From NCBI GenBank assembly GCA_002298145.1, contig DBMP01000015.1:276702-300701 (forward strand): a stretch of 24,000 nucleotides of DNA, in the 5' to 3' direction. The translations under genes were made by a program, and so were the position numbers. Position 1 is the first letter of the stretch, and each line of letters opens with the position of its first letter. Below the pieces are notes generated by a model, which did no database searches, was not told where the DNA came from, and was given only the letters and a program-made list of their open reading frames with translations. The stretch comes from Spartobacteria bacterium UBA695 (GTDB lineage: Bacteria > Verrucomicrobiota > Verrucomicrobiia > Chthoniobacterales > Chthoniobacteraceae). Shown here piece by piece: positions 3,680 to 21,017 of the stretch.

Positions 3680-5542
3680 TTAGCTTTCGGATGCCGGGTA
3701 GCGGATTTCCCAGCCTTCGTCGGTAGCGCTCAATTCTTCAATGAGCATTCCGCCACGGTACATTCCTGAAACGGTCGCACGGCCAGAAAGCGGCACCTTA
3801 AAAGAGACGTTCCACTTTGGCGGCCACGTCGGGAGAAGGTAGACTTCATTACCGACCTTCTGGCACACCATTTTTTGCAACGTGATCATCCCAGTGCTTC
3901 CACGGCGCATTTCGGAAATCGAATCGCCATCCGGCCTGCGCAAGCCATCGGACCGCTCCCCTGCGCAACCGCTCGAAAAGATCGTCTTCAAGGCCTCGGC
4001 AGCCTCCGCCTCCAAGCCCAGGCACGCAGCCTGAATTCCATCCGGCCTACAGCCTCCTGCGTCCTTGTAAATACGGGCATCGAAGATCCGTTTGCCACGC
4101 TCATCTTCCAGCACTGGAAGCGCGGGCAGGGCTGCGCGCATTTTTTTCCAGCTCTGGCGTTCCCGCGCAGAGATGGAAGCACTATGCACCGAAAGCAGCC
4201 CTTCCAGCATACACGCAAGCCCGGCGATGTCAGGCAGCCTGGAGGCAGCGCTAAAACATCCGCCGGGCTGGGTATAGAGCTTGCGGAAAAAGGTGAACAC
4301 CGCGCGCGCCATCGGCAGAAGAGTGTCATCCAAAAAACGTTTTTCACCGACCGCCTTGTGGTAATCCAACATCAACAGCGATAGCTCCAGGCTACTAGTC
4401 CAGCAATTCCGGAAACAGGGATTGCCGCTGTCCGCAGGCGATACGTCCTCGTGGTCAAACCACGTTTTGGGGGTAAACTCGGGCAGCGGAAGCATCTCAT
4501 CGTAATCACCGGCTCCGAGCATCGCCCAGTAAGCCAGCCGCGTGTTCTCAAAACGGTATGCGCCACCCCGGCAACGGTTATCGCCGTGATCCGGACCGAA
4601 TGGATTTAGCGCAATCCCGGAGGCCAACCGATGCCGTTGCCAAATGTAGCCATCATTAATCTTTTGGGCCTCTGGAAATCCGCTCAGCACAATCCAGCTC
4701 CGGCTCCAGAAACGCTGCCACCATGCCGCATGCGCGTTCCAGGTCGCAGCGGCATCGAGCGCGAGCAACTTCTGAAACATGGCGCTCAGATCGCTTTTCC
4801 ATGAGGCAACCTCCGGGGACTGAGCCGCGTGGATAACGACGAACACCCGGGATGCTTTGGCTGGAACTTCCGAAGCCACGGAATGCCTGGAATCGCGCTT
4901 CAACCCAGGCCCGCCGAGGCATCCGCCAAAGGTCCGAAAAGGAAGCGGATCACGCACTTGCCCAAGCGCCTTCGCTTCGCATTCGTCTTCGCAAACGGAC
5001 GCCTTGGGGTGGTAATGCCACAGCACCGTGTCCTTAACACCTTGAAATTCGACGTCTCCCAATAGCCTTTTTGCAGAGCGCCCACAAACGACCTCCCCAT
5101 GCATGTCGAATGCCGATCCTCCCTCAGATTCAACGACAATCGCTGGATGATTCGCATCCACCCGAATGCGCATTGAAAAATTTTCGTGAGCAGAGAAAAT
5201 TCGCACTGAGGAATCGTCGGGCCGAATTTCGAATTTCGTATCGCGGGCGGTCAGCGACGCAGGCTCGGTCCCTATCCGAATTTCGCCAACCCGTACCAAC
5301 CAGCCATTAGCGTCCCATGCATCCCGCTTGGAAATAGATAACCAGACCGCTCCGTTCGTCTCAAGCCATACGTTCGTAACGATGTCGCCATTCCCCAACG
5401 ACACACTCTCCGCGGAGGATCGCCCCGCACCGGTCCAAACAACCCGTGCGGCGCGCGCGGCAGCCAGCCCCTCTTCGGCTTGTTCTTCCGAAGAATTCTC
5501 CGCACCAACGTTCAATCCGGAATACTGGGTCATATTGATCAA
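3680..5542 (-). CDS. Putative glycoside-hydrolase-like protein (DUF5703 / GH95-N-terminal-like), cytoplasmic, 620 aa
   Basis: 620-aa ORF located 29 nt upstream of the GH38 gene. The N-terminal block SLGNGDIVTNVWLETNGAVWLSISKRDAWDANGWLVRVGEIRI resembles, from memory, the LGNGDxGxNVW...DAW motif of DUF5703/GH95-like N-domains. The C-terminal half is helix-rich. The coding call is solid; the function is tentative. Confidence 0.6.
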   Translation of the reverse strand: MINMTQYSGLNVGAENSSEEQAEEGLAAARAARVVWTGAGRSSAESVSLGNGDIVTNVWLETNGAVWLSISKRDAWDANGWLVRVGEIRIGTEPASLTARDTKFEIRPDDSSVRIFSAHENFSMRIRVDANHPAIVVESEGGSAFDMHGEVVCGRSAKRLLGDVEFQGVKDTVLWHYHPKASVCEDECEAKALGQVRDPLPFRTFGGCLGGPGLKRDSRHSVASEVPAKASRVFVVIHAAQSPEVASWKSDLSAMFQKLLALDAAATWNAHAAWWQRFWSRSWIVLSGFPEAQKINDGYIWQRHRLASGIALNPFGPDHGDNRCRGGAYRFENTRLAYWAMLGAGDYDEMLPLPEFTPKTWFDHEDVSPADSGNPCFRNCWTSSLELSLLMLDYHKAVGEKRFLDDTLLPMARAVFTFFRKLYTQPGGCFSAASRLPDIAGLACMLEGLLSVHSASISARERQSWKKMRAALPALPVLEDERGKRIFDARIYKDAGGCRPDGIQAACLGLEAEAAEALKTIFSSGCAGERSDGLRRPDGDSISEMRRGSTGMITLQKMVCQKVGNEVYLLPTWPPKWNVSFKVPLSGRATVSGMYRGGMLIEELSATDEGWEIRYPASES

Positions 5543-5570: not shown

Positions 5571-6944
5571 CTATTCCGGCGCGACGTAGTGTTCAGGCCC
5601 GCCCAAAGCCATAAACTTCGAATGGAGCGCGATCAGTAGAGCCAGCGACACAAACGCAACGACTGAACCGGCATAAAATGTATAGCTATAGTTATGGCTG
5701 GTATAATCCAGGAGCCAACCCACCGACGGCCCTTGGAGAATGCCGAGAAGGCTCCCGATGATCCCTCCCGCAGAGGCGAGTTCCGCGAACCGGGCACTTG
5801 GCAGCAAGCGTTGCCCCAGCGAAGCCGTGACGGTAAAATACGTTCCCGAAATAACCCCATGGGCGACGAGCGCGGCCCCATAGAGCCCCGGGGTGTGCGC
5901 GAAGGCTCCGCTGCACAGCGCCACCACGCCGTAAATGCCCATCATCACCATGCCCATGCGCAAAGGGTGAAAGCGATCGGCCAACGCGCCGAGCGGATAG
6001 GCCAAAACGAGTGAAATAATATACGTCAACGCCAGACACTTGCCATAGGCCTCCGTGCCCATACCTACCGCCGCCGCATAAAAGATGCTGAAAAGATTGA
6101 CGGGGCCAAAGGCAAGAGCGGCCAATGCCATCGCGATAAAAAATAATACATAGTAGGCATTGCCAAAGCAGTCCCTGAAATAGCCCCTAGTGGCAGCTAC
6201 CGCGCCGTGACGAGCCGCAGCAGGGGCTTCCGGAGGATACTCGCCCTCCTTTACCCTCAGACACATCAGCCCGAAGCCCACGCCGTAAAGCAGGCCAAAG
6301 CCAGCAAAGATCTCGACGTAAGCCGTCCGGGCGTGTTTGAGCAAATAGTAGTTGAACAAAATGCCCGCGATCAGCCCCAGGGCCCGGAACAGCCCGTAGA
6401 AACGCCCAATCACCCGGCGCGGAACGACGTCATTTACCAGGCCGCCAAATAGCCCCGTCGCCGTGATGCTTCCAAACTCAAAGGCCCCCCATGACAGCCC
6501 GAGCGCCACGATAACCCACGCGTTCTCCCCAACCGACCCGAACAGGCGGTGCAGGCTCGCACCAATCTGCGGGCTGAACGCCAACCCCAGCATCCCCACG
6601 ACCGTCACGGGGGTCATGAGGAGCAGAAAAGGAATCCGCCTTCCCCAGCGACCGCGGTGCCGGTCGGATTTATAGCTGATAATGGGGCTGAAGATCAGGC
6701 CGATAAACGCCGGTATCGAGCTGAGCAAGATTCCCGTGGTCAGGTCCGAGGCGCCAAACGCTTTCAGTAAGATTTGCAGGATGGGCGGCACCGCACGGTC
6801 CTTCATTGACCAGGCAAAGTCGCCCCAAAGCAACCAACAGAACAGCGCGATCAATCCGCCGGTAGTATACGTCAGCGTGCCGACGGTCCATTTTCGCGGG
6901 CTGGCCGAGGTCTGCGCCTGCTTGGTCTCTTGGTTCTCAGTCAT
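5571..6944 (-). CDS. MFS transporter of the glycoside-pentoside-hexuronide (GPH) type, sugar:cation symporter
   Basis: 457 aa with about 12 hydrophobic segments. The loop 2-3 motif SDRHRGRWGRRIPFLL is typical of GPH/MelB-like symporters. The gene starts 3 nt downstream of the stop of the lyase-like gene. Confidence 0.85.
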   Translation of the reverse strand: MTENQETKQAQTSASPRKWTVGTLTYTTGGLIALFCWLLWGDFAWSMKDRAVPPILQILLKAFGASDLTTGILLSSIPAFIGLIFSPIISYKSDRHRGRWGRRIPFLLLMTPVTVVGMLGLAFSPQIGASLHRLFGSVGENAWVIVALGLSWGAFEFGSITATGLFGGLVNDVVPRRVIGRFYGLFRALGLIAGILFNYYLLKHARTAYVEIFAGFGLLYGVGFGLMCLRVKEGEYPPEAPAAARHGAVAATRGYFRDCFGNAYYVLFFIAMALAALAFGPVNLFSIFYAAAVGMGTEAYGKCLALTYIISLVLAYPLGALADRFHPLRMGMVMMGIYGVVALCSGAFAHTPGLYGAALVAHGVISGTYFTVTASLGQRLLPSARFAELASAGGIIGSLLGILQGPSVGWLLDYTSHNYSYTFYAGSVVAFVSLALLIALHSKFMALGGPEHYVAPE

Positions 6945-6947
6945 GGC

Positions 6948-9125
6948 TTACTGGCCACTAACAATGGCGGCGCGTCCCTCGGATTGGTCTGGAAGGAGTT
7001 CCTTCACCTTCAACCCCAGCTCGCCCGCATATTCAACCGATAGTCGGCGGCGATCACTAAACTCCACGGTCGCGATCTGCTTCACCGCATCCACGCTGAC
7101 CGCTTTTACGGGGTTGGCCTCGCCTGGACGCAAAGGAATTAAGAGCGTTAGCAACGTCTGCGGTCCGGTGCCGGTGCGGGTATGGAGCAACGTCGTGGCG
7201 GGAATATTCCCTTTGCCTACATAGTCGCGGAGCACGTTCCAGCCGAGGAGTTCTGGCGTTTCCTGCGCGGAGACCGCGGCCACCTCCAGGCCCTCGGCAA
7301 GCAATGGAAGCACCGCGAGATTGGCGACCCCATGATCGACGGTAATTAGCGTGTGGGTCGCCGGGTCCAATTGCGTTTTCGTTGTCAAAAGCTGCCAGCG
7401 GGCTTGGTAGCGATGCGGCACGGCATCGGCGGGAACCAAGCGGTCGGCTACGAGATAGAGATCTGGCTTGAGAAAGAGCACTTCGCGCCGCTGGACCGCA
7501 ATGCGGCGGTGCTCCGGCCCGTACCCCTGATCATAAACCCCCGTTGCATAGTCAAACACCGGGGTACTCGTCCAGCAGGCATCAATGGGGCCTTGGCTCA
7601 CCATGTTGGGATCGCGCATCAAGTCGTTCCAGTTAAAGACCCTGGTCTGATCCAGGCCATCTACGATCACACAGTTATGAGAGTAAGTTGAGATGCCCCA
7701 ATCCCGCCATTTGCTCTTTTCGTAGGCGCCCCCACCATTGTTGAACAACAATTCGCGCCCGTAGGCCCAGAGGAGTACATCCAGGCTATCCTGATGCTGG
7801 TGGCCGCCCCCCGCCGGACCAACGCGGAATGCGGCGAGGTTGCCTTGGCGATCCCAGCCGGAGCGCATGACCGCAAACCCGGAGTAGTTAAAGAAGTACG
7901 ACGTTTGCGATGGCTCCCGGCCCTCCTGCCCATCCGTGGCGAGCCAGCGGAAATCCGCCCGGTTTGGGAAATACGCCACAGCCTTTTTGAACGTTCCCTT
8001 GTCCATCCAGGAATCGTTAAACTTCATGGGGAAATAATCCGGCGTGCTCACCCCCATCAGCCAGTCGTAACCTTTCTCAAGGCTCCCGACATAGCCGGGC
8101 GGAAGGTCGGCTTCCCGATCGTTCCATCGCGCGATTTGCACAATTCTTAGCAACGTATCCAGAACGACTTGATGATATCCTGTGGATAGTTCGACCTGAG
8201 CCCCATCGGGCAAAAATTGTTGTTTGACCTGGGTGACCAACTGTTCCAGGGCAAAGCTGCGCCAGTCGGCGGCCTCGCGGAACTCGGGGAACAGGCACCC
8301 CGCGACGTACAAACCGCTCATTTCCGTGGCCAGCCAGTTGAACCGCGAGTGGCAGGCGCGGAGATAGCGGGCGTGGTCGAGAAAAGAGCCCGCCAGGGCC
8401 ATTAGATCGTCATCGCTCATCGACGGCGAATGGAGAAATGCCCAATAGGCATCCGGCCAGGTTTGCCCCATGCGGATCCCCGCTTCGAGCGTTCGCCAGG
8501 TCAGCCCCGGCGATTGCCTGGCGCTACCCGGTGCCGGGCATTGATCGATCCACGAATGCATCTGCCGCACAAACGCCTTGGCATAGGTTTCATCACCGGT
8601 AGCGGTGTAGGCACCGGCCAGCGAAACCCAGAGCCACATCCGGTTTAAATAATACGTCCATTCGTTGTTGGGCGCGTATTCCGGGCTCTGTTCCGTGGCG
8701 TTATAGCTCCAGTCGATCACCCCGTTGGGAAACGCATGCACCGGGGAAACGGCGCCCTTGTTGACCCGGCCTGCGACCGCGTCATCGGCAGCCCCTTTAT
8801 CGAAGCGAAGCCCCACCTTTCGGCTCCCGTCGGGGTTCTCGCGCCAGTGGACATTCCTGCGTTCGCGCAAGTACTTGGCAAACGCCGCCACGGCCGCTGG
8901 CTGATCGTTATTGCGCAACGCTTGCGCCACGGCAGCCAGCTCGGGCCGCGTGAGGTCCAGCGACGCCAGCACATCGCTGGCCGGGGCGCTTTGAAGCGCA
9001 GACGCCACTCCGATCAAACAGGTGACAACGATGACCCATTTTCGAAAGATCAGGGAATGGAAAAGGAAGACCATGGGGAAATATGCGTTCGGGCGAATCT
9101 TGAGTTCAGCAGGCGGGGGAAGCAA
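6948..9125 (-). CDS. Heparinase II/III-like polysaccharide lyase family protein, secreted (725 aa; alternative start at 9074)
   Basis: The N-terminal alginate-lyase-like helical region is followed by a heparinase II/III-like C-domain with GGGHQHQDSLDVLLWAYGRELLFNNGGGAY and YSHNCVIVDG blocks. A signal-peptide-like MVFLFHSLIFRKWVIVVTCLIGVASALQSA begins at the internal ATG at 9074, which may be the true start. Confidence 0.85.
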   Translation of the reverse strand: MLPPPAELKIRPNAYFPMVFLFHSLIFRKWVIVVTCLIGVASALQSAPASDVLASLDLTRPELAAVAQALRNNDQPAAVAAFAKYLRERRNVHWRENPDGSRKVGLRFDKGAADDAVAGRVNKGAVSPVHAFPNGVIDWSYNATEQSPEYAPNNEWTYYLNRMWLWVSLAGAYTATGDETYAKAFVRQMHSWIDQCPAPGSARQSPGLTWRTLEAGIRMGQTWPDAYWAFLHSPSMSDDDLMALAGSFLDHARYLRACHSRFNWLATEMSGLYVAGCLFPEFREAADWRSFALEQLVTQVKQQFLPDGAQVELSTGYHQVVLDTLLRIVQIARWNDREADLPPGYVGSLEKGYDWLMGVSTPDYFPMKFNDSWMDKGTFKKAVAYFPNRADFRWLATDGQEGREPSQTSYFFNYSGFAVMRSGWDRQGNLAAFRVGPAGGGHQHQDSLDVLLWAYGRELLFNNGGGAYEKSKWRDWGISTYSHNCVIVDGLDQTRVFNWNDLMRDPNMVSQGPIDACWTSTPVFDYATGVYDQGYGPEHRRIAVQRREVLFLKPDLYLVADRLVPADAVPHRYQARWQLLTTKTQLDPATHTLITVDHGVANLAVLPLLAEGLEVAAVSAQETPELLGWNVLRDYVGKGNIPATTLLHTRTGTGPQTLLTLLIPLRPGEANPVKAVSVDAVKQIATVEFSDRRRLSVEYAGELGLKVKELLPDQSEGRAAIVSGQ

Positions 9126-9161: not shown

Positions 9162-9181
9162 AATGGAAAATCACTTTCATT
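9162..9181. promoter_or_regulatory. Imperfect inverted repeat (AATGgAAA-atcac-TTTCATT) in the divergent lyase/lacI promoter region; candidate LacI-type operator
   Basis: TGAAA/TTTCA-like half-sites read directly in the 84-nt divergent intergenic region. The palindrome is imperfect, with non-canonical spacing and no central CG. Confidence 0.2.
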
Positions 9182-9209
9182 GGAAACGGGCTCGCGGTAT
9201 ATCTGTCGC

Positions 9210-10241
9210 ATGAAACGGCCCACCCTCCGGGACATCGCGGCGCTTGCACATGTCACCCACGTCACGGTTTCAATGGCGCTGCGGAAGCATCCGAACATCC
9301 CCGTGGCAACCCGGGAGAAGATCGAAAAAATCGCCAAGGAAATCGGCTACCATCCAGACCCCGCGCTGTCGGCTTTGATGATTTACCGGCGGGGAGCCAA
9401 GGCCTCCCGCTACCAGGCAACCCTGGCCTGGATCGACACCAGCCGACGAACACGCTCGGCTACGGGCGACACCTTCATTAGCCGCGTCTTTCTGGGCGCC
9501 CGGGAGCGGAGTGAGGAACTCGGCTACCGGCTCGAAGAATTCCGCACAAACGAGATGGATGTGAGCTTCGACCGGCTTTCGAAGATTCTCTACTCCAGGA
9601 ACATTCAAGGCGTGCTCTTCGCCCCCCACGATCAAGCCCACGCGCATATCAACTACCGAAGCTTCGACTGGGCCCGCTTTTCCGCCATCTCGTTTGGATT
9701 CAGCCTGGCGAGTCCCAAGCTCGATGTCATCGTCGATGCCCAATACCGCACCGCGCGCACGGCGGTAAGGCGCTTACGGGCGCTGGGTTATCGCAAAATT
9801 GGCTACGCCGCCTACCATGAGTTCGACGAGAGAACCGATGGCAACTTTTTAGGAGGTTTCCTCACCGAGCAGCTTCGCTCCCCGGTATCCAGCCGCATTC
9901 CTCCGCTGGCATGTCTAGGCAAAGACTTCGATAAAGAATGCCGCAAATGGTTCCGCCGCTACAAACCGGATGCCATCTTCGCACCCGTTCCCGATGTCGC
10001 CCGAGCCCTCAAGCCGGAGGAACTCAAAAAATGCGGTATCGCGATGAACAACCCCCCGGAGGATTTGGCTCACTATGCGGGCATCCGGCAGGATTACCGC
10101 ATCCTTGGGCAAATCGGCATTGATGAAGTCGTCGCCATGATCCACACCAACCGACGCGGAATCCCCACCATGCCCAAGCGCATCATGGTGGAGGGTTATT
10201 GGCAGGACGGCCCCTCCGCTCCCCGGGTTATTTTCCAATGA
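9210..10241 (+). CDS. LacI-family transcriptional regulator
   Basis: The N-terminal HTH MKRPTLRDIAALAHVTHVTVSMALRKHPNIPVATREKIEKIAKEIGYHPDPALSAL matches the LacI/GalR DNA-binding domain. The remainder is a periplasmic-binding-protein-like sugar-sensor fold. I place the start at the ATG at 9210 rather than the ORF-track ATG at 9180, which would add METGSRYICR. Confidence 0.9.
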   Translation: MKRPTLRDIAALAHVTHVTVSMALRKHPNIPVATREKIEKIAKEIGYHPDPALSALMIYRRGAKASRYQATLAWIDTSRRTRSATGDTFISRVFLGARERSEELGYRLEEFRTNEMDVSFDRLSKILYSRNIQGVLFAPHDQAHAHINYRSFDWARFSAISFGFSLASPKLDVIVDAQYRTARTAVRRLRALGYRKIGYAAYHEFDERTDGNFLGGFLTEQLRSPVSSRIPPLACLGKDFDKECRKWFRRYKPDAIFAPVPDVARALKPEELKKCGIAMNNPPEDLAHYAGIRQDYRILGQIGIDEVVAMIHTNRRGIPTMPKRIMVEGYWQDGPSAPRVIFQ

Positions 10242-10273
10242 AACAAACGTTCTCGTTGCAGCCGTTTTGTTTC
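10240..10273 (+). promoter_or_regulatory. Inverted repeat GAAACAAACG-13 nt-CGTTTTGTTTC overlapping the lacI stop codon; hairpin or operator candidate between the regulator and the pseudopilin cassette
   Basis: The arms are complementary apart from one extra T. The left arm contains an AACGTT core. No U-tract follows, so it is not a canonical intrinsic terminator. Confidence 0.25.
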
Positions 10274-10333
10274 GGTCGCATTAATTCAAACGTCACCCCC
10301 TGCTGTGTAGAGAGCAGTTGATCTTCACGTCGA

Positions 10334-11137
10334 ATGAAATCCCCCCGGTCACTTTCCAGTGCGTTGATTTATAGCGCGAGAGGCTTCTCGTTATTGGAGC
10401 TTTTGGCCGTGCTTGCCCTCGTCGCCATCCTCACCGCGCTGGTGGTTCCCGCTACCAGAGGGATGAAGGGCGCCCAGGACTTAACCGGCGCGGCCTACGC
10501 CATCCAGGGAGCTCTGGACCTGGCGCGCACCTATGCGATGGCCAACAATACCTATACATGGATCGGCTTTTTCGAGGAAGACAACGCCCACCCCTCGCAA
10601 ACTCCCGCACAGGCCGGTGTGGGACGCGTCGTCATCTGCGTCATCGCCTCGCGGGACGGGAGCTGCATCTATAACAAGACCACGGCGCAGGAGGATCCCC
10701 CGGCGGTCCAGAGCTTGCCCCCGGCTCGGTTGGTGCAAATCGGCAAACTCATCAAAATCCCCGGCGTCCATTTTTTTAACGCAACGGCCCAGGTGATCGG
10801 AAAACGCCAGGCGGGGATGATCGATGCGCAAAACCTCGTGGGCCTGAGTTCGCAGCCGTTGTTGTTCTCCTTTCAATACCCCCTTTCGAGCACCTCGGAA
10901 TACACCTTTGGAGTCCGGCCAGTACCATCGGCCAATGGCGTGCCAGTGGCCAACGGGGTAATCCAGTTTTCACCGAGGGGCGAAGCCATTTCCGACGCCG
11001 GTCCGATCACCTTTCCCTCCACCACCTTTGAAATCACCCTCCAAACCGCCCACGGCAATCAACCTGCCAATACCGCCAACGCCATTGCCCTGGATATCAA
11101 CGGCCTTACGGGGCAAACCACCATGTACCGTCCATGA
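10334..11137 (+). CDS. Prepilin-type N-terminal cleavage/methylation domain protein, GspH/FimT-like minor pseudopilin (candidate 'Verru_Chthon cassette protein D')
   Basis: Class III signal MKSPRSLSSALIYSARG|FSLLELLAVLALVAILTALVVPA, with Gly at -1, Phe at +1 and Glu at +5. 267 aa. The stop overlaps the next gene's start (ATGA at 11134-11137). Confidence 0.8.
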   Translation: MKSPRSLSSALIYSARGFSLLELLAVLALVAILTALVVPATRGMKGAQDLTGAAYAIQGALDLARTYAMANNTYTWIGFFEEDNAHPSQTPAQAGVGRVVICVIASRDGSCIYNKTTAQEDPPAVQSLPPARLVQIGKLIKIPGVHFFNATAQVIGKRQAGMIDAQNLVGLSSQPLLFSFQYPLSSTSEYTFGVRPVPSANGVPVANGVIQFSPRGEAISDAGPITFPSTTFEITLQTAHGNQPANTANAIALDINGLTGQTTMYRP

Positions 11138-11583
11138 AAACTCGCGATCGTAACCGCTCTGCCTTTTCGCTGGTGGAGGTCGTGCTGGCCTTGGGCATCG
11201 CCTCCTTTTCGATGGTGTCAATCCTCGGCTTGCTCCCCGTGGGGCTTAGCAACAGCCGCAGTTCGACCGCGCAGACCGGGGCGATGAATTTGATCACGGC
11301 CATTGCCGCCGACATTCGCTCCACACCATCAACAGCTTCAGCCTCTCCCCGGTATGCAATCCCCACCGGCGACACCACTAGCCAGACGTTCTATTTTGAC
11401 GAACAAGGGCACATCGCCACCGGCCTTCAAACCAGCTCCCGCTACAAAGCGCTAGTCCAAGCCATCTGGCAATCCTCCACCAACGCAACGATGCACCGGG
11501 TCACCGTGTCGTGGCCCGCGCAGGCAGAAGCCTCCACCATGGGCGGCTCGGTCGACGTAATGGTGTCGCTTGCCAGGAACTAG
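11134..11583 (+). CDS. Prepilin-type N-terminal domain protein, GspI/PilV-like minor pseudopilin (candidate 'Verru_Chthon cassette protein B')
   Basis: MKTRDRNRSA|FSLVEVVLALGIASFSMVSILGLLPVGL, with Phe at +1 and Glu at +5. 149 aa. Translationally coupled to the upstream gene. Confidence 0.8.
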   Translation: MKTRDRNRSAFSLVEVVLALGIASFSMVSILGLLPVGLSNSRSSTAQTGAMNLITAIAADIRSTPSTASASPRYAIPTGDTTSQTFYFDEQGHIATGLQTSSRYKALVQAIWQSSTNATMHRVTVSWPAQAEASTMGGSVDVMVSLARN

Positions 11584-11601
11584 TCCCACCACCACCCCGT
11601 C

Positions 11602-12717
11602 ATGGCGCATCCATCCCCTCCAATGACCGACAGCAGCCGCCGCTGCTCCCGTAGGGTTCATGCGGAGGGACTGGCGTTTACGTTGATCGAGATCATGGTG
11701 TCGGTCAGCATCCTGATCCTGATCGTCCTACTAGTGAACCAACTGGTCAACAGCGCCTCCATGACCACCCTCACCGCGAGCAAACGGATCGACTCCGACA
11801 ACCAGGCGCGCCTGATTTTCGCCAAGATGGCGGAAGACTTTGACGCCATGTATCGACGCGGCGACCTTCATTACTATTTCCTGAGCCAAAGCGGGAACGA
11901 CGCCTTTTACTTTTACTGCCAGGCCCCCGGCCACATTGCCCCTCAAGACGTTTCCGGCACGAGCGACGCCTCCCTCAACCATTCCTCCCTGGTCGGCTAC
12001 CGCGTCAGCGACAGGATCAGCGGCGGCAGCCGGGTGGAACTCGAACGGCTCGGACGCGGCTTGCACTGGGCTGATGGCGCGGGCCAGACCGGCACGGACG
12101 GCCACGCCACCTCGGTACTTCATCTGCCGTGGCTGATCAAAAACGCCTTCTCCGAAGCCCTGGCCGACGCCCATAACAACTCCTCCAATCCCTACGGCAA
12201 CACCTCCACCAGCGCGCCGCAGTGGGATGTTATTGGGGACCAAGTCTTCCGGATGAAGTTTTGCTTTTTGCTTACCGACGGAAGCTTCAGCCTCACGCCC
12301 ATACTGAGCAATACCGCCACCCTCAATAACCTGACGGCCACCGCCGCGCCCGGCACCGGCAACGACTCCGCGGCGGGATACTCCGTGGGCTCCCGTTGGT
12401 ACGACACCTCCGCCAGCGTCGCCTACACCTGCATCAACGCCGCGCCAAACACCGCACTGTGGGCGCCCTCGGGGCTTCAGGACGTCAAGGCCGTGGTCGT
12501 CACCCTTGCGCTCATGGACTCCAAGAGCCGCACCACCACCACGGTCAGCGCCATCCAAAAGGCCATATCCAGTATGCGCGACGCCACCCCGGGCCCCCAG
12601 GCAGCCACCTGGATGCCCCAGACCGACGATGCCGCAGCCATCGCCCGGAACTCCGGCTTGAGCCGCGCGGCAGCCTCTTCCATTCGCGTTTACGAACGCT
12701 TCTTTTACCTGCAATAG
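11602..12717 (+). CDS. Prepilin-type N-terminal domain protein, GspJ/PilW-like minor pseudopilin (candidate 'Verru_Chthon cassette protein C')
   Basis: ...RRVHAEGLA|FTLIEIMVSVSILILIVLLVNQLV, with Phe at +1 and Glu at +5. 371 aa from the ATG at 11602; an alternative in-frame ATG lies at 11623. The leader is unusually long (25 aa from 11602). The gene starts 18 nt after the previous stop. Confidence 0.75.
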   Translation: MAHPSPPMTDSSRRCSRRVHAEGLAFTLIEIMVSVSILILIVLLVNQLVNSASMTTLTASKRIDSDNQARLIFAKMAEDFDAMYRRGDLHYYFLSQSGNDAFYFYCQAPGHIAPQDVSGTSDASLNHSSLVGYRVSDRISGGSRVELERLGRGLHWADGAGQTGTDGHATSVLHLPWLIKNAFSEALADAHNNSSNPYGNTSTSAPQWDVIGDQVFRMKFCFLLTDGSFSLTPILSNTATLNNLTATAAPGTGNDSAAGYSVGSRWYDTSASVAYTCINAAPNTALWAPSGLQDVKAVVVTLALMDSKSRTTTTVSAIQKAISSMRDATPGPQAATWMPQTDDAAAIARNSGLSRAAASSIRVYERFFYLQ

Positions 12718-12725
12718 CCCCGCCC

Positions 12726-15700
12726 ATGCTCCCCCCCATCCATAACCGCCCCCAAGGCCGCGCCCCCCAGGGAGCCGCGCTGGTGCTGGTTCTCTGCTTT
12801 GCCGTATTGGTCGCGGGGCTTGCGGTGGCCTTTTTTTCCCGGGCCAGCACGGAGCGCCAGGCCTCCAACGCCAGCGCCAATGGGACCAAGGTGGAGCTGC
12901 TAGCCGACGCCGCCCTGAACGTCATCGTCGATGACCTCAAAGAAGAGATCATCAATAACTCCACCACCAGCGGCACCGGCTCCAACGTCCTCTACATCCC
13001 CAAGGCGGGCGCCAACGCCGTGCCCCAGCGTCAGGCGGCCATCGCATCGGGCCCCCTCGCCAACCTGCTCCGCATCAGCAGTCACACCGATGCGGGCACC
13101 CGCGCCGCCGCCCTCCTTTCCACGGGCACCTCCTATAACGGCCGCTCCGTAAGCCTCCCTCGCTGGAACCTGCACTACCTGCTCCCCCTCAAAACCAGCG
13201 GCACCTCCAGCAGCACCTTGGGCGACTCCACCCCGGCCTCCGCATTCACCGCCCCGGACTGGGTCATCCTCACTCGTAACGGCCCCACCGCATCAGCCTC
13301 TGTCCGGACGCTCTCCAGCGCCACCAACGCCAACTACGCCATCGGGCGCTATGCCTATGCGATCTACGACGAAGGGGGCCTTTTGGACATCAACTCGGCG
13401 GGCTACCCCTCTTCCTCCACCGGAACCCAATCCGGCCCCAAAGGCGGCCTCGCCTACGCCGACCTCACACAACTAACCGACGGCTCCGGCACCCCGCTGC
13501 TCACCCAAACGCAGATCGACCAGATCGTGGGCTGGCGCAACTACGCCACCGCCCAACCCTCGGGAACCTTCCCGAACTACACCTTCGACACCGCCGGAGC
13601 AGCCCGCTACCAGACCCTGGCCATCTCCAGCAGCTCCAACCCGCTCTACGTCTCCGGCTCCAGCTACAACGGCAACACCGACCACACCATCCTGAACCGC
13701 CAGCAGCTCATCAAACTACTGCAAAGCATCGGCTCCACCCCGGCGGAGAAAATCAATCTCCAAAACGCCCTGCAATACCTCGGCACCTTCTCGCGCGAAG
13801 TCAACGGCCCCACCTTCTCCGGCACCGGAGCCGACACCAGCGACTACAACCCGCCCCACATTTTCGACGTCAAAGTATCCGGAACATTCACGCGCAACGA
13901 CGGCAGCATCGCCACCAAGGGAGAGCCGCTGGTGAAAAACCGCTTCCCGCTTGAGAAACTGGCCCTTCTGGAAAAAATGCGGGGCATCCCGTTGGGCACC
14001 AGCACCCTTAGCGCCAGCGATATCGACGACATCGCCCGGTATTTCGGCCTCGACCCGGTGAGCGACTCCAACGGCTGCTACCGCCACTGGAGCTACCCCA
14101 CCACCAGCCCCAAATATAAACACCCGGACCCGAACGGCATCATGTCGCTTGCCAGCGTGGCTGCCCAAAATCGCGAACCCGATTTCTTCGAAATGCTCCA
14201 GGCCGCCCTTGCCCAGGGCTCGCTGGGGAAAGGAAACGTCCGGGGCGATTTACTCAACGGCTCCTACTCCCTCACCAGCTCCCCGGCCTTTGTGGACCCG
14301 GATGCCCGAGTCACTTTGCAAACCCTCCGCATCGGGGCCAACCTCATTGATCAGTGGGACACAGACAATTACCCCACCACCATCACGGCAACCTCCACGG
14401 GCGATAGCGTCTACGGCATCGAAGACCTCCCCTACCTCAACGAATTCCTCTTCCGTTTCATCGGCAACGGCAGCACCGCAACCAGCTCCACCTACGCCGC
14501 CTGCATCGCCTTCGAGTTGTGGAATCCCCATCAACTCCTCGCCTCCAACACCGGCACCTATCCCGCCGAGCTTCAAATATCGCCCCTCAACATCCCAAGC
14601 AGCGCCGCCCTCTCAGACTACTACCGCATCGGCGTCATCGCCACGGATTCCAATAATACCAAGAGCTATTGGTACTACAACGGCACCACCCAGCAATGGG
14701 TCACCTCCTACCCGATGAACCGCTTTTCCAATGCCCTGAACCAAGGCATCATCGGCCCCTTCACGACCACGCAGACCGACTTCCGCGAACCGGCCCTCAG
14801 CTCCACGCTCGTGCTCAACACCCCCATCAGTCTTCCCGCCGATTCCGTAACCAGTGGAACGTCGATCTGGTCGCAAGCCGTATCCCGAGGCACCGGAAGT
14901 TTAACCCTCTACGTTTCCCTCGTTTATCGCCTCCAATATCGAGACGCGAACGGCACCTTCCGGACCTATGGCACCTTCGTCGGGCAAGACAACGCCGCCG
15001 CCACCCTTCCCGGCACCGGCTATCAACAGTTCTCCTGGATCGGATTCAATACCGCAGCCCAATCCTCCGGATGGTATTCCTGCCCCAAGGCGGACCCCCG
15101 CACCTACCGTTTTGGCACGGGGTATAACGACAACTTCTCCGCTAGCTTCGCGGGCAAAAGCCTGACGCCCAGCGCCTCCGACATCCAGGGCCCCATCCGC
15201 GAGATATTGCCCTTCAGCGGCGGCAACTCCCTCCCAAAGCCCTATCGGGTTGACCTCTGGGCCGTCAACGACCCCGCCGATCCCAATGGCGGCCCCCCCG
15301 CCACCAACATAGCGAAACCCTACTACCCCGATAAAGATAACCAAACAAGACCCGGCGACGCCCTCTACTCCTACACCGCCATCCCATCCATCAGCCCCCT
15401 CTATGATGCCAGCCACGGAGGACCAGCGGCGCGGCCGGTCATCCTCAACCGCCCTTTCCGCTCCATCGGCGAACTCGGCTACGTCTTCCGCGACATGCCG
15501 TGGAAAACCCTCGACCTTTTTTCCAAATACAGTGCCGACGCAGCATTACTCGATCTGTTCTCCCTCCACGGCAGCCAGCCCCTCCTGGCCGGTCGCCTGA
15601 ACCCCAATACCCGCCAGAAAAACGTCCTCGCCGCCCTCCTCACCGGCGCCACCCAGGCCAGCGGCACCGCGAGCAACGTCACCGCCGCAAACGCCACCAG

Positions 15701-16034
15701 CGTCGCCAACGCCATCATCGCCCTCAGCTCTGACACCGCGTTTGCAAACCGCACGGAACTAGTCACCCGGCTGATGGCCGACTCCGCCATTGGAAACATC
15801 TCAACCATCAAAACAGAGCGGGAATCCGTCGTACGCGCCCTGGCCGACTGCGCCAACACCCGCACCTGGAATTTGCTGATCGATCTCGTCACCCAAGTTG
15901 GGAAATACCCGCCCACGGCAACCTCCCTGGATCAATTCATCGTTGAGGGAGAGCGCCATTATTGGCTCCACGTAGCCATCGACCGCTACACCGGCCGCGT
16001 CGTCGATAAACAACTAGAAGTCGTCCGCGAATGA
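12726..16034 (+). CDS. Giant GspK/PilX-like pseudopilin-family protein, 1102 aa (candidate 'Verru_Chthon cassette protein A')
   Basis: I start it at the ATG at 12726, 8 nt after the gene C stop: MLPPIHNRPQGRAPQGAALVLVLCFAVLVAGLAVAFFSRA. This is a hydrophobic pilin-like N-terminus lacking Glu+5, as in GspK/PilX. The internal IYDEGGLLDINSAG and C-terminal GRLNPNTRQKNVLAALLTGA resemble GspK D-x-x-G-x-x-N-x-N and N-x-NTA...L motifs. The ORF-track start at 12396 would overlap gene C out of frame and encodes Arg/His-rich junk. Confidence 0.7.
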   Translation: MLPPIHNRPQGRAPQGAALVLVLCFAVLVAGLAVAFFSRASTERQASNASANGTKVELLADAALNVIVDDLKEEIINNSTTSGTGSNVLYIPKAGANAVPQRQAAIASGPLANLLRISSHTDAGTRAAALLSTGTSYNGRSVSLPRWNLHYLLPLKTSGTSSSTLGDSTPASAFTAPDWVILTRNGPTASASVRTLSSATNANYAIGRYAYAIYDEGGLLDINSAGYPSSSTGTQSGPKGGLAYADLTQLTDGSGTPLLTQTQIDQIVGWRNYATAQPSGTFPNYTFDTAGAARYQTLAISSSSNPLYVSGSSYNGNTDHTILNRQQLIKLLQSIGSTPAEKINLQNALQYLGTFSREVNGPTFSGTGADTSDYNPPHIFDVKVSGTFTRNDGSIATKGEPLVKNRFPLEKLALLEKMRGIPLGTSTLSASDIDDIARYFGLDPVSDSNGCYRHWSYPTTSPKYKHPDPNGIMSLASVAAQNREPDFFEMLQAALAQGSLGKGNVRGDLLNGSYSLTSSPAFVDPDARVTLQTLRIGANLIDQWDTDNYPTTITATSTGDSVYGIEDLPYLNEFLFRFIGNGSTATSSTYAACIAFELWNPHQLLASNTGTYPAELQISPLNIPSSAALSDYYRIGVIATDSNNTKSYWYYNGTTQQWVTSYPMNRFSNALNQGIIGPFTTTQTDFREPALSSTLVLNTPISLPADSVTSGTSIWSQAVSRGTGSLTLYVSLVYRLQYRDANGTFRTYGTFVGQDNAAATLPGTGYQQFSWIGFNTAAQSSGWYSCPKADPRTYRFGTGYNDNFSASFAGKSLTPSASDIQGPIREILPFSGGNSLPKPYRVDLWAVNDPADPNGGPPATNIAKPYYPDKDNQTRPGDALYSYTAIPSISPLYDASHGGPAARPVILNRPFRSIGELGYVFRDMPWKTLDLFSKYSADAALLDLFSLHGSQPLLAGRLNPNTRQKNVLAALLTGATQASGTASNVTAANATSVANAIIALSSDTAFANRTELVTRLMADSAIGNISTIKTERESVVRALADCANTRTWNLLIDLVTQVGKYPPTATSLDQFIVEGERHYWLHVAIDRYTGRVVDKQLEVVRE

Positions 16035-16699
16035 AAGCGCTCCGTATCCTCACCCCGTTTCTGACGCTCCTTCTGTTTGCAGGGATCCCGCCCATCCGCG
16101 CACAAGATCGCGAACTACCAGCGCCAAAGCCCCCCTACATTGCCCCCCTTCCTCACGACGGGCACTGGCTGATCACCCTAAAGCGAGCCGAGCCAGACCC
16201 CGCACAAAGCATTTCAGACAAGCGAGCCCGAACCGTCACCCCCGAGCCGATTCCCACAGCGATCGACACCCTCAAAACCGGCGACACCAAACGCATCACC
16301 CTCACCTTCAGGGACGGCACAGCACAGCAGATCCATCAAGTCCGGGGATACATCCTGACAACAGCCGCCGAAGGCCCCCAGATCTCAACCGCCACGCCAG
16401 GCGCTCCGCCCTATCCGTTTTACACCACGGCCTTCCTTTTCGTCGAAAACATCGGGCCCTCAACCTTCAAAGGCGTAGCATCCATCCAGGGAAAAGAGTG
16501 TTTCTATTACCGGACTGGAACCACCGAAGCATGGATCGACATCGACTCCATGCTCCCCATCGCAAGCAAAGCCGAGGGAATCATCGCCCATTTCCAATTC
16601 CTCCCGCCGCCCACCACCCCCATTGCCCTGCCGCCAGAGGAAGCATCGATTCTCAACCAGCAGGAAAGAGCCCACACCGCCGCCAGCTTAATGCGATAA
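16031..16699 (+). CDS. Secreted protein of unknown function (222 aa), translationally coupled to the giant pseudopilin-like gene
   Basis: ATGA start/stop overlap at 16031-16034. Sec signal peptide MKALRILTPFLTLLLFAGIPPIRA|QD. The mature part is Pro-rich and then beta-rich. It has no pilin-like N-terminus and I recognise no family. Confidence 0.7.
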   Translation: MKALRILTPFLTLLLFAGIPPIRAQDRELPAPKPPYIAPLPHDGHWLITLKRAEPDPAQSISDKRARTVTPEPIPTAIDTLKTGDTKRITLTFRDGTAQQIHQVRGYILTTAAEGPQISTATPGAPPYPFYTTAFLFVENIGPSTFKGVASIQGKECFYYRTGTTEAWIDIDSMLPIASKAEGIIAHFQFLPPPTTPIALPPEEASILNQQERAHTAASLMR

Positions 16700-18085: not shown

Positions 18086-18352
18086 GCCCGGCAGTTTCCC
18101 CCGGAAGCAAAGCCAAGGCAAGCCGCAAGATAACCCAACCCGAAGCCCCCGGGAACCGGAAGCCTCGCAGCCCACCCCAAAATTTCTGTTGCTTATTTCC
18201 CGAAAAGCCTCATGCTAGGGGGAATTGGATTTGATATTTGGATAGTTCGTTGCTCGGTAAATTGTCAGGTGGGTTCGCCCGGTGGTGATTTTGAGACCCG
18301 ATTCTCGGGAACGGCTTTGCAGCTTGTCGATTGAGACTCCACCACCATTACT

Positions 18353-18972: not shown

Positions 18973-19608
18973 CATTGATCGCAAGTAGGTAGCATCTTCC
19001 TCCGTCTGTAAACGCGGGAAGAACTCCGGCGGATGGGTGCCGACGGATGGCTTTTTGTGGACAGCGTCCACAAAACAAAAACACCCAAATCAGAAAACCA
19101 GGGCCCGCAAGGGCCAACCCGCCAACGCCGAGGCGGGTCACGGCGTATCCTCTCGCAAAAAAAAACCAAGGCAACGGCAAAGACAGCCTGGTTTTTTAGG
19201 CCAATAACCGCGCCGCCCATCCTCCGGGCGCCCCCCCGCCGCCGCCGCATTCGCGTCGTGCGTATGCCCGCCGAACACATCGGCCTTTCCAAAGAATGCC
19301 CCGGATGCCTCAAGCGTTGGCATCTGCGATCCTCCTTCGGCAACAACTTGGAACCGGCCCAGAGCAAGGACATCAAAAAGCAGAGCCTCTTTTCCGTCAT
19401 CTGCTGCACCCAAAAAATGGAAAGCCTCGCATATAATGTTCCAGACCATTGAGCACGGATGGAAGCCCGGATTAGGGCCGAACGATATGCCCTACTGGAT
19501 GTGCTGCAATGGGAGATGGAGTTTAATAGATTGGAGCGGAATGCACCGTTTTGAGCAACAACGTTTCCGCAGTTGACTTTCCACCTTCAACATGAATCAC
19601 ATTAAAAC

Positions 19609-19929: not shown

Positions 19930-20067
19930 CGCAGAACCCGTAATGCTTGAAAATCATCGTGGGGGCGGTGCCCATTTGGAGGGCGAGAGGAGTCGACGCT
20001 ATGGCGTAGGGCGTTGGTGGGCCAGTTTTCTAGGAGTTAGCGGGAGGCCCACTTTTCAGAATAGAAA

Positions 20068-20939: not shown

Positions 20940-21017
<78 letters not shown>

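Follow-up and report, generated by a model that had tools for sequence, protein, structure and literature searches.

Gene organization of the cassette and its surroundings

The locus was analysed within a 24,000-nt stretch of DNA (the window) of a soil-type Verrucomicrobium, in which five tightly spaced genes, all on the plus strand, occupy positions 10334-16699 according to the list of open reading frames and the sequence as read. The features of the cassette and of its upstream surroundings are as follows.

504..3650, minus strand: GH38 alpha-mannosidase (Pfam Glyco_hydro_38N/C, Alpha-mann_mid, E 5e-92), one of the flanking genes for glycan utilisation
3680..5542, minus strand: DUF5703_N protein (Pfam DUF5703_N, E 1e-38), flanking gene
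5571..6944, minus strand: MFS sugar-type transporter (Pfam MFS_2/MFS_1)
6948..9125, minus strand: heparinase II/III-like protein (Pfam Hepar_II_III_N, E 2e-86), divergent from the LacI gene
9180..10241, plus strand: LacI-family regulator (Pfam LacI HTH, E 2e-13), directly upstream of the cassette
10242..10333, plus strand: LacI-to-D intergenic region, 92 nt, presumed promoter/operator region
10334..11137, plus strand: cassette protein D, 267 aa, GspH/FimU-like minor pseudopilin, prepilin site ARG|FSLLE
11134..11583, plus strand: cassette protein B, 149 aa, GspI/PilV-like minor pseudopilin, prepilin site RSA|FSLVE
11602..12717, plus strand: cassette protein C, 371 aa, GspJ/PilW-like minor pseudopilin, prepilin site GLA|FTLIE
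12726..16034, plus strand: cassette protein A, 1102 aa, giant GspK/PilX-type tip subunit, PQG|AALVLVL, without Glu5
14403..15365, plus strand: variable region of A, residues ~560-880, beta-rich, candidate specificity module
16031..16699, plus strand: cassette protein E, 222 aa, Sec-exported accessory protein, probable LolA-superfamily fold

The D and B genes share an ATGA overlap at 11134, the start of B lying over the stop of D, and the same arrangement is found at 16031, where E starts over the stop of A; both junctions were read directly from the sequence. B and C are separated by 18 nt (11584-11601), and C and A by 8 nt (12718-12725). The reading frame of A is open from a TTG at 12396, and the ATG at 12726 fits the public 1102-aa product. 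The public call for D is 247 aa long with a start equivalent to 10394, by which the prepilin signal is lost, and the ATG at 10334 was preferred because the paralogues are 267 aa. For the LacI gene, the public call starts at about 9210 and gives 343 aa. The N-terminus of A reads ...PQG|AALVLVLCFAVLV, with no Glu at +5. This pilin-like fourth N-terminus, the prepilin sites of the three preceding proteins and the spacing of the genes had all been reported in a preliminary description of this DNA, and all were found as reported. It had also reported the absence of a major pilin, GspD/E/F and a prepilin peptidase, and indeed the 24,000-nt window lacks genes for a major pilin, an ATPase, a platform protein, a secretin and a prepilin peptidase; no machinery gene or major pilin was located in the window and two other contigs of the source genome.

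Family membership and prepilin-type signals

The best NCBIfam matches of the four pilin-like proteins are, in gene order, the Verru_Chthon cassette proteins D (TIGR02596), B (TIGR02598), C (TIGR02599) and A (TIGR02600). The preliminary description had proposed this identity, which holds for the best matches in their exact order, but only B passes a curated cutoff (60.3 bits, cutoff 51.4). The other three fall far below theirs, with matches limited to the N-terminal 60-100 residues: D matched TIGR02596 (E 3e-09) and GspH (E 6e-09), both under the respective cutoffs, C matched TIGR02599 (E 2e-06, N-terminus only), and A matched Verru_Chthon_A (E 1.5e-09) and GspK (E 2e-03), again over the N-terminus only. 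Therefore, the window cassette is a divergent relative, or sister group, of the Verru_Chthon cassettes. D also exceeds the cutoff of Pfam N_methyl (23.8 bits, cutoff 21.2), and the profile searches proposed earlier matched both pseudopilin and cassette families (N_methyl, GspH, GspK and Verru_Chthon D/B/C/A). No mention of the Verru_Chthon cassette families was found in the literature searched.

In D, B and C alike, each of the 37 members sampled matches its own Verru_Chthon family (TIGR02596 for D, TIGR02599 for C). When family-wide profile searches were made, GspH was matched by 32 sequences of the pooled set and GspJ by 15, and the matches of B were to PilV (19), XpsI (8) and GspI (6). With hhalign, the family profile of C aligned with E. 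coli GspJ at 95% probability, in 109 columns that extend into the globular domain, whereas A aligned with E. coli GspK at 68% over 61 columns and B only weakly with E. coli GspI (43%). A PDB profile search with D gave a match confined to the pilin alpha1 helix; except for C and GspJ, only the N-terminal helix resembles the Gsp/Pil minor pilins. Some homologues of A carry the JGI name 'Tfp pilus assembly protein PilX'. The GspH-I-J-K logic proposed for the gene order is upheld by the GspH, GspJ, GspI, XpsI and PilV matches, by the likeness of C to GspJ, by the GspK-type N-terminus of A and by relatives ordered G-H-I-J-K.

In the homologues of D, B and C (54-57 for each protein), Phe at +1 is invariant, Glu at +5 is invariant save for one Asp in C, and position -1 is Gly or Ala, with Ser in two sequences of B and two of C. 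Among 70 homologues of A, Gly is found at -1 in 50 of the 61 having a residue there, +1 is mostly V, A, M or I, and at +5 the top four states are I, L, V and a gap, with Glu outside them. Judged by this conservation, the prepilin-type motifs exceed chance, and the N-terminus of A follows the GspK/PilX pattern. In model systems, prepilin peptidases accept Ala at -1 less readily than Gly. B and C of the window carry Ala at this position, which we counted against the explanation preferred below.

Copy number and linkage to pilus-type machinery

The gene order D-B-C-A was found in 63 loci of Verrucomicrobiota; in 50 of them, a homologue of E follows A. The count of paralogous cassettes, which had been suggested as a check, gave at least three in the source genome (the window copy, L003 and L084) and at least nine in the related complete genome CP170506.1. 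The window copy is an accessory paralogue of a Verrucomicrobiota-specific five-gene minor-pseudopilin operon, D-B-C-A-E.

A PilB/GspE-type ATPase gene adjoins the cassette in six related loci (L014, L051, L070, L079/L087, L090 and L091), and the ATPase carries a c-di-GMP-binding MshEN domain. In L090 and L091, the GspE/PilB-type ATPase stands beside a GspG-like pilin followed by D, B, C, A and E, which corresponds to the order G-H-I-J-K(+E). The cassette-linked ATPases score 640-645 bits against PilB, slightly above their GspE score, and the L090/L091-type ATPase reaches 622.7 against GspE, for which the cutoff is 630.25. An MglA/MglB-like pair was found near the cassette at one core locus. 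Neither GspC, L and M nor a secretin was found near the cassettes, and the absence of GspC/D/F/L/M there is unlike the type II secretion gsp operon; no retraction ATPase was seen near any cassette, and no major pilin in the accessory cassette loci.

The preliminary description had called the cassette 'orphan', but separation from the machinery is not unusual for minor-pilin operons. It had also presented an exchangeable tip as a new functional concept, which it is not, since several minor-pilin sets on one machine have already been published for Myxococcus xanthus. Its three minor-pilin/PilY1 clusters share a single major pilin and one T4aP machine, and it is speculated in that work that the three clusters give tips differing in properties (PMC7541494).

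Proteins A and E

The AF2 model of A (pLDDT 87.8, pTM 0.88) has a 60-residue N-terminal helix (residues 17-77), mostly beta strands between residues 552 and 787, and a C-terminal sheet (1047-1099). No PDB relative of A was found by sequence search, Foldseek gave no match to GspK or any other solved structure, and no carbohydrate-binding domain was recognisable with Pfam or Foldseek. Column conservation in residues ~560-880 is 0.26-0.46 compared with 0.40-0.78 elsewhere in A, and identity to close paralogues is 0.29-0.55 compared with 0.47-0.86. The sequence variation makes this region a candidate specificity module.

E has an N-terminal hydrophobic signal ending IRA|QD, with no lipobox Cys, and its family comprises 1254 cluster representatives at 50% identity; it matched no Pfam or NCBIfam model. 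Its AF2 model, built from a 7-sequence alignment (pLDDT 71.7), shows 11 antiparallel strands and a C-terminal helix, and the top 20 Foldseek matches in the PDB were all of the LolA/RseB/LppX/LolB/VioE type (E-values 1e-3 to 3e-2, TM-scores 0.26-0.41). The modelled fold is probably that of the LolA superfamily, a likeness without a sequence-level match. This fold had been missed in the preliminary description. We know of no LolA-like protein that works with pilins.

Sugar-utilisation context

The locus is best characterised by the LacI gene located 92 nt upstream of the cassette and by the surrounding genes for glycan utilisation, which are its most informative features. GH130 is also found among the glycan genes of the window, together with GH38 and the heparinase II/III-like protein, and similar genes recur at other cassettes. 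GH38 flanks cassettes in 4 other loci, also in L088; the DUF5703_N family recurs among second neighbours; and the heparinase II/III-like family adjoins the paralogous cassette in L003 and is the gene immediately upstream of D in L088. Among nearest neighbours no family is commoner than MFS (6/89), which is also present in L003, L084, L088 and L089. Carbohydrate-related Pfam families (those counted include GH1, 3, 5, 29, 30, 35, 36, 38, 92, 130, CBM9, sulfatase, MFS and GDSL) account for approximately 25 of the 89 listed first neighbours and approximately 23 of the 68 second neighbours. In L088 and L089 the cassette lies within same-strand runs of CAZyme and MFS genes, and in L003-L005 a secreted lectin-like (Laminin_G_3) protein precedes D.

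The source genome has a LacI gene upstream of both its other cassettes: in L084 this gene adjoins D, and in L003 one lectin-like gene lies between the two. In 59 loci, LacI genes occur 0-2 kb upstream of D at 0.22 per locus versus 0.00-0.06 in other 2-kb bins, an enrichment of about 7-fold across loci. The presence of E correlates with a nearby LacI gene (30/50 versus 2/13, p = 0.005), and approximately 40% of the E-containing cassettes have none within 10 kb. The 92-nt intergenic region contains a weak hairpin (10300-10317) and an imperfect palindrome (10273-10292), and it shares no operator motif with the paralogous loci. From these gene positions we infer that the cassette is linked to sugar utilisation. 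The LacI gene, the GH/MFS surroundings, the multi-copy state and the variable region of A had not been noticed in the preliminary description.

Proposed function and alternatives

The best explanation as a whole, and in our judgement a likely one, is that the cassette provides a sugar-regulated, interchangeable pseudopilus tip for a shared machine. D, B, C and A would be inserted in the inner membrane and then cut, D, B and C at their G/A|F sites and A at G|A, by a prepilin peptidase whose gene lies elsewhere. The four proteins would assemble, like GspH-I-J-K or FimU-PilV-PilW-PilX, into a priming or tip complex that would be received by a type IV filament machine encoded elsewhere, with a PilB/GspE-type ATPase, and extended by a GspG-like major subunit. 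Because it has no Glu5, the 1102-aa A is proposed to cap the fibre, so that about 1000 residues of globular protein would be displayed, and its variable beta-rich part might set the binding target of the tip. E, as a periplasmic LolA-fold protein, could be an accessory factor for the giant A or for the complex. In the clade of the window copy, cassettes appear to have a LacI-type regulator on the upstream side and to lie amid glycoside hydrolases and an MFS transporter. Given this setting, the cassette would most likely be induced by one sugar and its tip dedicated to that glycan, the GH38, GH130 and heparinase II/III-like neighbours suggesting mannose-containing glycans. Such a tip would capture or import the glycan, or export the neighbouring enzymes. 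Many copies, each with a sugar regulator of its own and genes for sugar degradation alongside, may thus give a shared machine sugar-specific tips.

Several more specific explanations were considered. It is possible, if doubtful, that the cassette forms the tip of a retractile type IV-like fibre with which a specific polysaccharide is bound outside the cell and drawn in, up to or across the outer membrane, to be degraded 'selfishly' in the periplasm; such a variant would resemble DNA uptake by competence pili. The LacI, MFS and GH surroundings, the variable exposed region of A, the lectin-like protein before D in L003-L005 and the PilB-like ATPases adjoining core cassettes are consistent with this, as are the reports that Verrucomicrobiota take labelled glycans into cells and that glycan accumulation in Akkermansia needs mul genes, among them the pilus-like MUL2 locus (PMC13174399). 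However, MUL2 is another gene set (a PilM protein and an archaeal-like pilin), reported to be little conserved among Chthoniobacterales (PMC13174399), and neither a retraction ATPase or secretin near any cassette nor a carbohydrate-binding domain in A was detected.

Alternatively, the cassette might prime a pseudopilus of type II secretion, with A at the tip to recognise and expel the neighbouring glycoside hydrolases and lyases, one cassette serving each enzyme set; we consider this rather unlikely. The G-H-I-J-K order beside a GspE-like ATPase in L090/L091, the nearness of that ATPase to the GspE cutoff and the CAZymes flanking cassettes favour it. Furthermore, GspK has been proposed to contact T2SS substrates (PMC7541494), and a T2SS with 67 PulG-like paralogues has been suggested for alginate lyase export in a Verrucomicrobium (PMC13274419). 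In contrast, the higher PilB scores of the ATPases, their MshE-type c-di-GMP domain of pilus ATPases, the MglA/MglB-like pair, typical of pilus polarity control, and the lack of GspC, L, M or secretin near cassettes argue against it, and T2SS offers no precedent for a separate substrate-specific tip for each enzyme set.

It is unlikely that the cassettes are redundant priming paralogues of type IV pili for ordinary twitching or attachment, their proximity to sugar genes being incidental in CAZyme-rich genomes. Core copies do adjoin PilB and the MglA/MglB-like pair, M. xanthus retains three such sets for motility under differing conditions (PMC7541494), and many E-containing cassettes have no LacI gene nearby. 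However, the LacI enrichment is position-specific, immediately upstream of D and not spread across the flanks, several cassettes lie within same-strand GH and MFS runs, and nine or more copies per genome are far beyond the needs of redundancy. Least probable is a bindosome-like, envelope-anchored short stub of pilin-like proteins, without a filament, that holds the large A as a substrate-binding protein near the MFS transporter, since a filament is indicated by the H-I-J-K architecture of the four proteins and by the GspG-like pilin of core loci, and MFS transporters, to our knowledge, do not use binding proteins. Its model is the archaeal sugar-binding proteins with class III signal peptides, those of Sulfolobus needing a pilus-like assembly system (PMC3047682), and the adjacent sugar transporters and the accessory loci without a major pilin would fit it.

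Comparison with known systems

The Verru_Chthon families resemble the window cassette in gene order, in prepilin N-termini in three of four proteins, in a very large fourth protein, in their limitation to Verrucomicrobiota and in many copies per genome; in contrast, D, C and A of the window match them over the first 60-100 residues only, and E has no NCBIfam model. The LolA superfamily (LolA, LolB, RseB, LppX, LprF and VioE) shares the predicted fold of E, an 11-stranded antiparallel sheet with a helix, although E has no sequence-level match and its model is of moderate confidence.

As in GspH-I-J-K of type II secretion (the E. coli gsp operon, L086), four consecutive pilin-like genes are found with the largest last, the last protein lacks Glu5 and has an RG|VALLIVL-type N-terminus, C aligns with GspJ past the helix, and relatives show G-H-I-J-K beside a GspE-like ATPase. 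However, A has 1102 aa compared with 327 aa for E. coli GspK (hhalign template length) and no Foldseek-detectable GspK-like fold, and the cassette has an extra LolA-like gene; each genome has many copies of it, and these stand under regulators of the LacI type.

[quoted passage not shown] M. xanthus also has several sets per genome, there serving one machine and one major pilin (PMC7541494), and an accessory periplasmic protein encoded in the cluster, TfcP (PMC8833165), whereas the copy number of the cassette is at least 3 times higher and its setting is sugar utilisation, not motility. Within the same phylum, MUL2 of Akkermansia muciniphila (amuc_1099-1102) ties pilus-type proteins to glycan foraging and uptake, but it encodes a PilM protein, a pilin of archaeal type and two further, uncharacterised proteins rather than D-B-C-A-E (PMC13174399). 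Among verrucomicrobial pseudopilins, one is induced by alginate, and a PulG-like gene is located inside an alginate locus (PMC13274419).

Gene organization of the cassette

Direct reading of the window bore out the five + strand open reading frames of the preliminary description, including both ATGA overlaps and both gaps (18 nt and 8 nt) claimed for them. The products are referred to here as D, B, C, A and E, the first four names being taken from the best NCBIfam matches.

10334-11137, + strand: D, 267 aa
11134-11583, + strand: B, 149 aa
11602-12717, + strand: C, 371 aa
12726-16034, + strand: A, 1102 aa
16031-16699, + strand: E, 222 aa

With its start at 12726, A matches the public record of this product (P0001) at 100% identity. 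For D, the public gene call starts 20 codons late (window 10334-10394; 7609-7669 in the cassette locus L001) and gives a 247-aa protein in which the prepilin leader and Phe+1 are lost. Because the D paralogues in the source genome were called at full length (267 and 275 aa), we place the start of D at 10334, and the late start in the deposited record probably reflects an error of annotation. No further gene for a pilin, ATPase, platform protein, secretin or peptidase was found in the window, in agreement with what had been stated for it. Pseudogene formation or decay was rejected on three grounds: none of the five reading frames is interrupted, the key residues are invariant, and the structural model of A has a pTM of 0.88.

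The coding strand of the cassette is unusually C-rich, with a GC skew of -0.18 to -0.31 at 11000-17000 versus -0.04 to -0.12 in the rest of the window. Third codon positions in A are 64% C and 17% G, and Ala, Ser, Thr and Pro are abundant in both A and E; the bias could reflect either expression-linked codon usage or mere amino acid composition. A gene for a CreD-family inner-membrane protein (16688-18175, - strand; Pfam E = 3e-143) converges on the cassette, its 3' end overlapping the end of E by 12 nt, and does not recur beside other cassettes. The G+C content drops to 0.48-0.52 at 19000-21100, compared with 0.55-0.66 elsewhere in the window, and this stretch, which contains tRNA-Val(GAC) (20943-21017, - strand) and several short open reading frames with no family match, might reflect a small insertion next to this tRNA gene. 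An Rfam search of the window for RNA elements detected tRNA only.

Pilin-type features of D, B, C and A

D, B and C each carry the class III signal peptide motif, consisting of a short basic leader, Gly or Ala at position -1 relative to the prepilin peptidase cut site, Phe+1, Glu+5 and a hydrophobic helix. That these motifs are beyond chance is indicated by their conservation across 54-57 homologues of each protein: Phe+1 is invariant in all three alignments, Glu+5 is invariant save for one Asp in C, and position -1 is Gly or Ala, with Ser in two homologues of B and two of C. The Pfam N_methyl model was passed by D (23.8, cutoff 21.2), with B just under the cutoff (19.1), and searches of PDB sequence profiles gave matches to the pilin alpha1 helix only for D and C and no match for B. 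Position -1 is occupied by Ala rather than Gly in about half of the homologues of D, B and C, and the window's own B and C are among these. Since Gly at -1 is strongly preferred by prepilin peptidase in model organisms, the peptidase of this lineage may, judging from these alignments, have a relaxed specificity.

The N-terminus of A reads G|AALVLVL and lacks Glu5. Among 70 homologues of A, position -1 is Gly in 50 of the 61 that have a residue there, position +1 is mostly V, A, M or I, and Glu is not one of the four most frequent states at +5 (I, L, V or a gap). As is characteristic of GspK, A is the largest protein and the product of the last pilin-type gene of its cassette, and several of its homologues carry the JGI name "Tfp pilus assembly protein PilX." In A, a scaffold of conserved sequence (residues 1-560 and 880-1102) encloses a variable, beta-rich module at approximately 560-880, in which identity to close paralogues falls to 0.29-0.55. 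A search of PDB sequence profiles for solved relatives of A gave no match at E <= 1, and a Foldseek search of the A model against the PDB returned only noise, such as leukocidins and lectins, with E > 0.01 and TM-scores < 0.07; no PilY1 structure was present among the top 50 matches, all of which had E > 0.01.

Family membership

The preliminary description had likened D, B, C and A to a GspH-I-J-K quartet and to the Verru_Chthon cassette families, and had called for a family search. The best NCBIfam matches were indeed Verru_Chthon cassette D, B, C and A, in gene order (models TIGR02596, TIGR02598, TIGR02599 and TIGR02600), but against the curated cutoffs only B passed (60.3 vs 51.4), while D (37.2 vs 70), C (27.4 vs 256.5) and A (36.4 vs 332.3) stayed below and matched the models by their first 60-100 residues only. 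All 37 sampled homologues of each of D, B and C matched the corresponding Verru_Chthon model. Furthermore, the four genes were found together, in order and in multiple copies in Verrucomicrobia, which is the neighborhood by which these families are recognized. The family is already catalogued as Verru_Chthon cassette A-D, and no mention of it was found in the literature searched.

The next NCBIfam matches were GspH for D, ComGF for C and GspK for A, and in the pooled set of homologues, 32 sequences matched GspH, 15 GspJ, 19 PilV and 6-8 GspI/XpsI. The equivalog cutoffs of GspH (36 vs 80) and GspK (17.8 vs 130) were not reached. When profiles were aligned with the E. coli K-12 proteins by hhalign, C matched GspJ with 95% probability over 109 columns, reaching into the globular domain; D matched GspH with 85% over 26 columns only; A matched GspK with 68% over the N-terminal 61 columns, which include the RG|VALLIVL motif; and B matched GspI with 43%. 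The H-I-J-K reading was substantially right.

The signal peptide of E is of the Sec type (...IRA|QD) and lacks a lipobox, and no family in Pfam or NCBIfam matched the protein. An exhaustive search of cluster representatives yielded a family of 1254. Word-indexed searches found no more than 5-6 proteins, also when a profile of 44 sequences was used, and for this reason the AF2 model of E rests on 7 sequences (pLDDT 71.7). It shows an 11-stranded antiparallel meander with a C-terminal helix, and the top 20 Foldseek matches all belong to the LolA superfamily (LolA, RseB, LolB, LppX, LprF, VioE and EPDR1), with probabilities of 0.90-1.00 but E-values of 1e-3 to 3e-2 and TM-scores of 0.26-0.41. With its 222 aa, probable LolA-like fold and lack of a Pfam or NCBIfam match, E does not correspond to PilY1.

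Distribution and association with filament machinery

When one genome per GTDB species was searched, 370 stretches were confirmed, and the best 80 of these loci are all from Verrucomicrobiota, save one contig binned to a Pyrinomonadaceae MAG. More than 1400 homologues of A were found among 8000 candidates scored. The order D-B-C-A was present in 63 loci by local HMM mapping, with a homologue of E next in 50 of them, and the cassette unit is therefore one of five genes rather than four. Counting of paralogous cassettes, which had been proposed, gave at least three in the source genome (JGI 3300029327), namely that of the window and those of loci L003 and L084, and at least nine in the complete 5.6-Mb genome of a related member of the Chthoniobacteraceae, CP170506.1 (nine of the best 80 loci).

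In six related loci (L014, L051, L070, L079/L087, L090 and L091), the cassette adjoins a gene for a PilB/GspE-type ATPase with an MshE-type c-di-GMP domain. Two of them, L090 and L091, have an extra pilin gene before D (227/242 aa), whose best NCBIfam matches are GspG (4e-12 to 5e-11) and M. xanthus PilA, and a homologue of E after A, so that these loci read ATPase <-> G-like, D, B, C, A, E, in the same order as gsp G-H-I-J-K. Thus the placement after a GspG-like gene and together with a GspE-type ATPase, absent in the window, is present in L090 and L091, whose A proteins are 35-37% identical to that of the window over the full length. Of all the evidence, these two loci speak most strongly for a partnership between the family and a type IV filament machine, and for the window cassette being an accessory set that lacks a G and an ATPase of its own.

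The ATPase operon of L087 contains a gene for a Roadblock/LC7 protein and another whose product matches the Arf family only faintly and is possibly a small GTPase; next to the pilus ATPase, the two may form a polarity pair of the MglB/MglA type. Other products encoded together with the ATPase beside such cassettes are an MshEN/TPR protein and a conserved protein of 644-749 aa that matches no family (L087 1764-7421; L091 1-4845). Pilin-like genes of 217-235 aa near some cassettes were considered as possible DUF1559/PulG-type major pseudopilins, but the N_methyl motif was their only Pfam match. Solitary pilin-like genes of 217-219 aa with the N_methyl motif alone are also found immediately adjacent to additional LacI genes, at a distance of a few kb from cassettes (L033 19657-21381; L044 1476-3299), and the pairing of LacI with pilins therefore seems to reach beyond the five-gene cassette.

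Association with sugar utilization genes

On the strand of D, a LacI-family gene overlooked in the preliminary description ends 92 nt before the start of D; farther upstream, and on the opposite strand, are genes for a heparinase II/III-like protein, an MFS transporter, a DUF5703 protein and a GH38 alpha-mannosidase, and a GH130 gene lies downstream of the cassette. For the other two cassettes of the source genome as well, a LacI gene is located upstream and the surroundings contain sugar genes (GH42, melibiase, SASA, MFS and heparinase-like in L003; GH130, GH1, MFS and CBM9 in L084). Over 59 non-redundant loci, LacI density was 0.22 per locus in the 2 kb upstream of D versus 0.00-0.06 in every other 2-kb bin to 10 kb. 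LacI occurred within 10 kb of 30 of the 50 cassettes with E versus 2 of the 13 without E (Fisher p = 0.005). A palindrome that could represent a shared LacI operator was sought upstream of D and in the divergent promoters of the three cassette loci known in this genome, and none was common to them; a promoter and terminator scan yielded nothing informative.

Carbohydrate functions dominate the Pfam families of cassette neighbors, accounting by our own count for roughly 25 of 89 first-neighbor and 23 of 68 second-neighbor proteins. These families include MFS, CBM9, CBM4_9, heparinase-like, SASA, GDSL, sulfatase and ConA-like proteins and glycoside hydrolases GH1, 3, 5, 29, 30, 35, 36, 38, 92 and 130, a variety which fits one cassette for each different glycan locus. 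For instance, L088 reads, on one strand, regulator, heparinase-like, D-B-C-A-E, GH38, MFS, x, GH130, and L089 reads AraC, GH/CBM9, D-B-C-A, MFS. Heparinase II/III-like and MFS genes recur beside the cassettes of the window (504-9125, 22725-23711), L003 and L088, joined by GH38 and GH130 in the window and L088, and these recurring companions of paralogous cassettes suggest that whole loci, not cassettes alone, were duplicated and then diverged. In L003, a 241-aa signal-peptide protein encoded between LacI and D (6811-7536), with equivalents in L004 and L005 of the same clade, has a ConA-like lectin/glucanase domain (Laminin_G_3, E = 2e-5, under the gathering score).

Proposed function and comparison with known systems

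In the best-supported mechanism, D, B, C and A would be processed by prepilin peptidase and would form the priming or tip complex of a pseudopilus or pilus whose machine is encoded elsewhere, with A capping the fiber and E acting as a putative periplasmic accessory protein. The cassette would then constitute an alternative, sugar-regulated tip, in which the variable module of A may confer substrate specificity. Gene anatomy, family relations and genomic context are established by the results above; processing, assembly, induction and specificity are inferences from them. Such a tip might serve secretion, that is, export of the enzymes encoded next to it, or alternatively capture and import. 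It is also possible that its role is plain motility, or that the cassette builds a bindosome-like stub.

Many times per genome, a complete minor-pseudopilin set sits within a cluster of glycan-degradation genes and under a putative sugar regulator, and this arrangement leads to the testable hypothesis of substrate-specific tips on a shared pilus-like machine. In its fullest form, which we consider rather unlikely, sugar-inducible interchangeable pseudopilus tips, one per glycan locus, would turn one shared type IV filament machine into a substrate-specific "harpoon" for selfish glycan capture and import in Chthoniobacterales-type Verrucomicrobiota. The variable module of the giant A would then bind one polysaccharide, and E, with its LolA-like fold, would serve the giant pilin as its own periplasmic chaperone. 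If this were true, the system would be the functional counterpart of SusC/D of Bacteroidota and of the archaeal bindosome. If, on the other hand, the link to sugars is incidental, the finding amounts to a phylum-specific expansion of known alternative minor-pilin sets.

To our knowledge, SusC/D pairs, which carry out capture and import of large polysaccharides in Bacteroidota, are lacking in Verrucomicrobiota and the PVC group, and this type of locus bears on how these bacteria perform both steps. The analysis also assigns a likely role to the A family, a large family of 1000-1300-aa "hypothetical proteins," and links a second uncharacterized family, that of E with its about 1250 cluster representatives, to the cassettes.

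Verrucomicrobiota cells have been reported to accumulate labelled glycans (PMC13174399). The same report ties pilus-type genes to glycan foraging within the phylum in the case of Akkermansia MUL2, and PulG-like pseudopilins occur in an alginate locus of the same phylum (PMC13274419); both sets of genes are different from those of the cassette. The suggestion that an exchangeable tip would be a new concept does not hold, because M. xanthus has interchangeable minor-pilin sets on one machine with one major pilin, for which tips with different properties have been proposed, and its PilX, like GspK, is without Glu5 (PMC7541494). In contrast to M. xanthus, the cassettes described here have an 1100-aa pilin-type cap in place of PilX and a separate PilY1, contain a fifth gene with a probably LolA-like product, reach at least nine copies per genome and are embedded in glycan loci putatively controlled by LacI.
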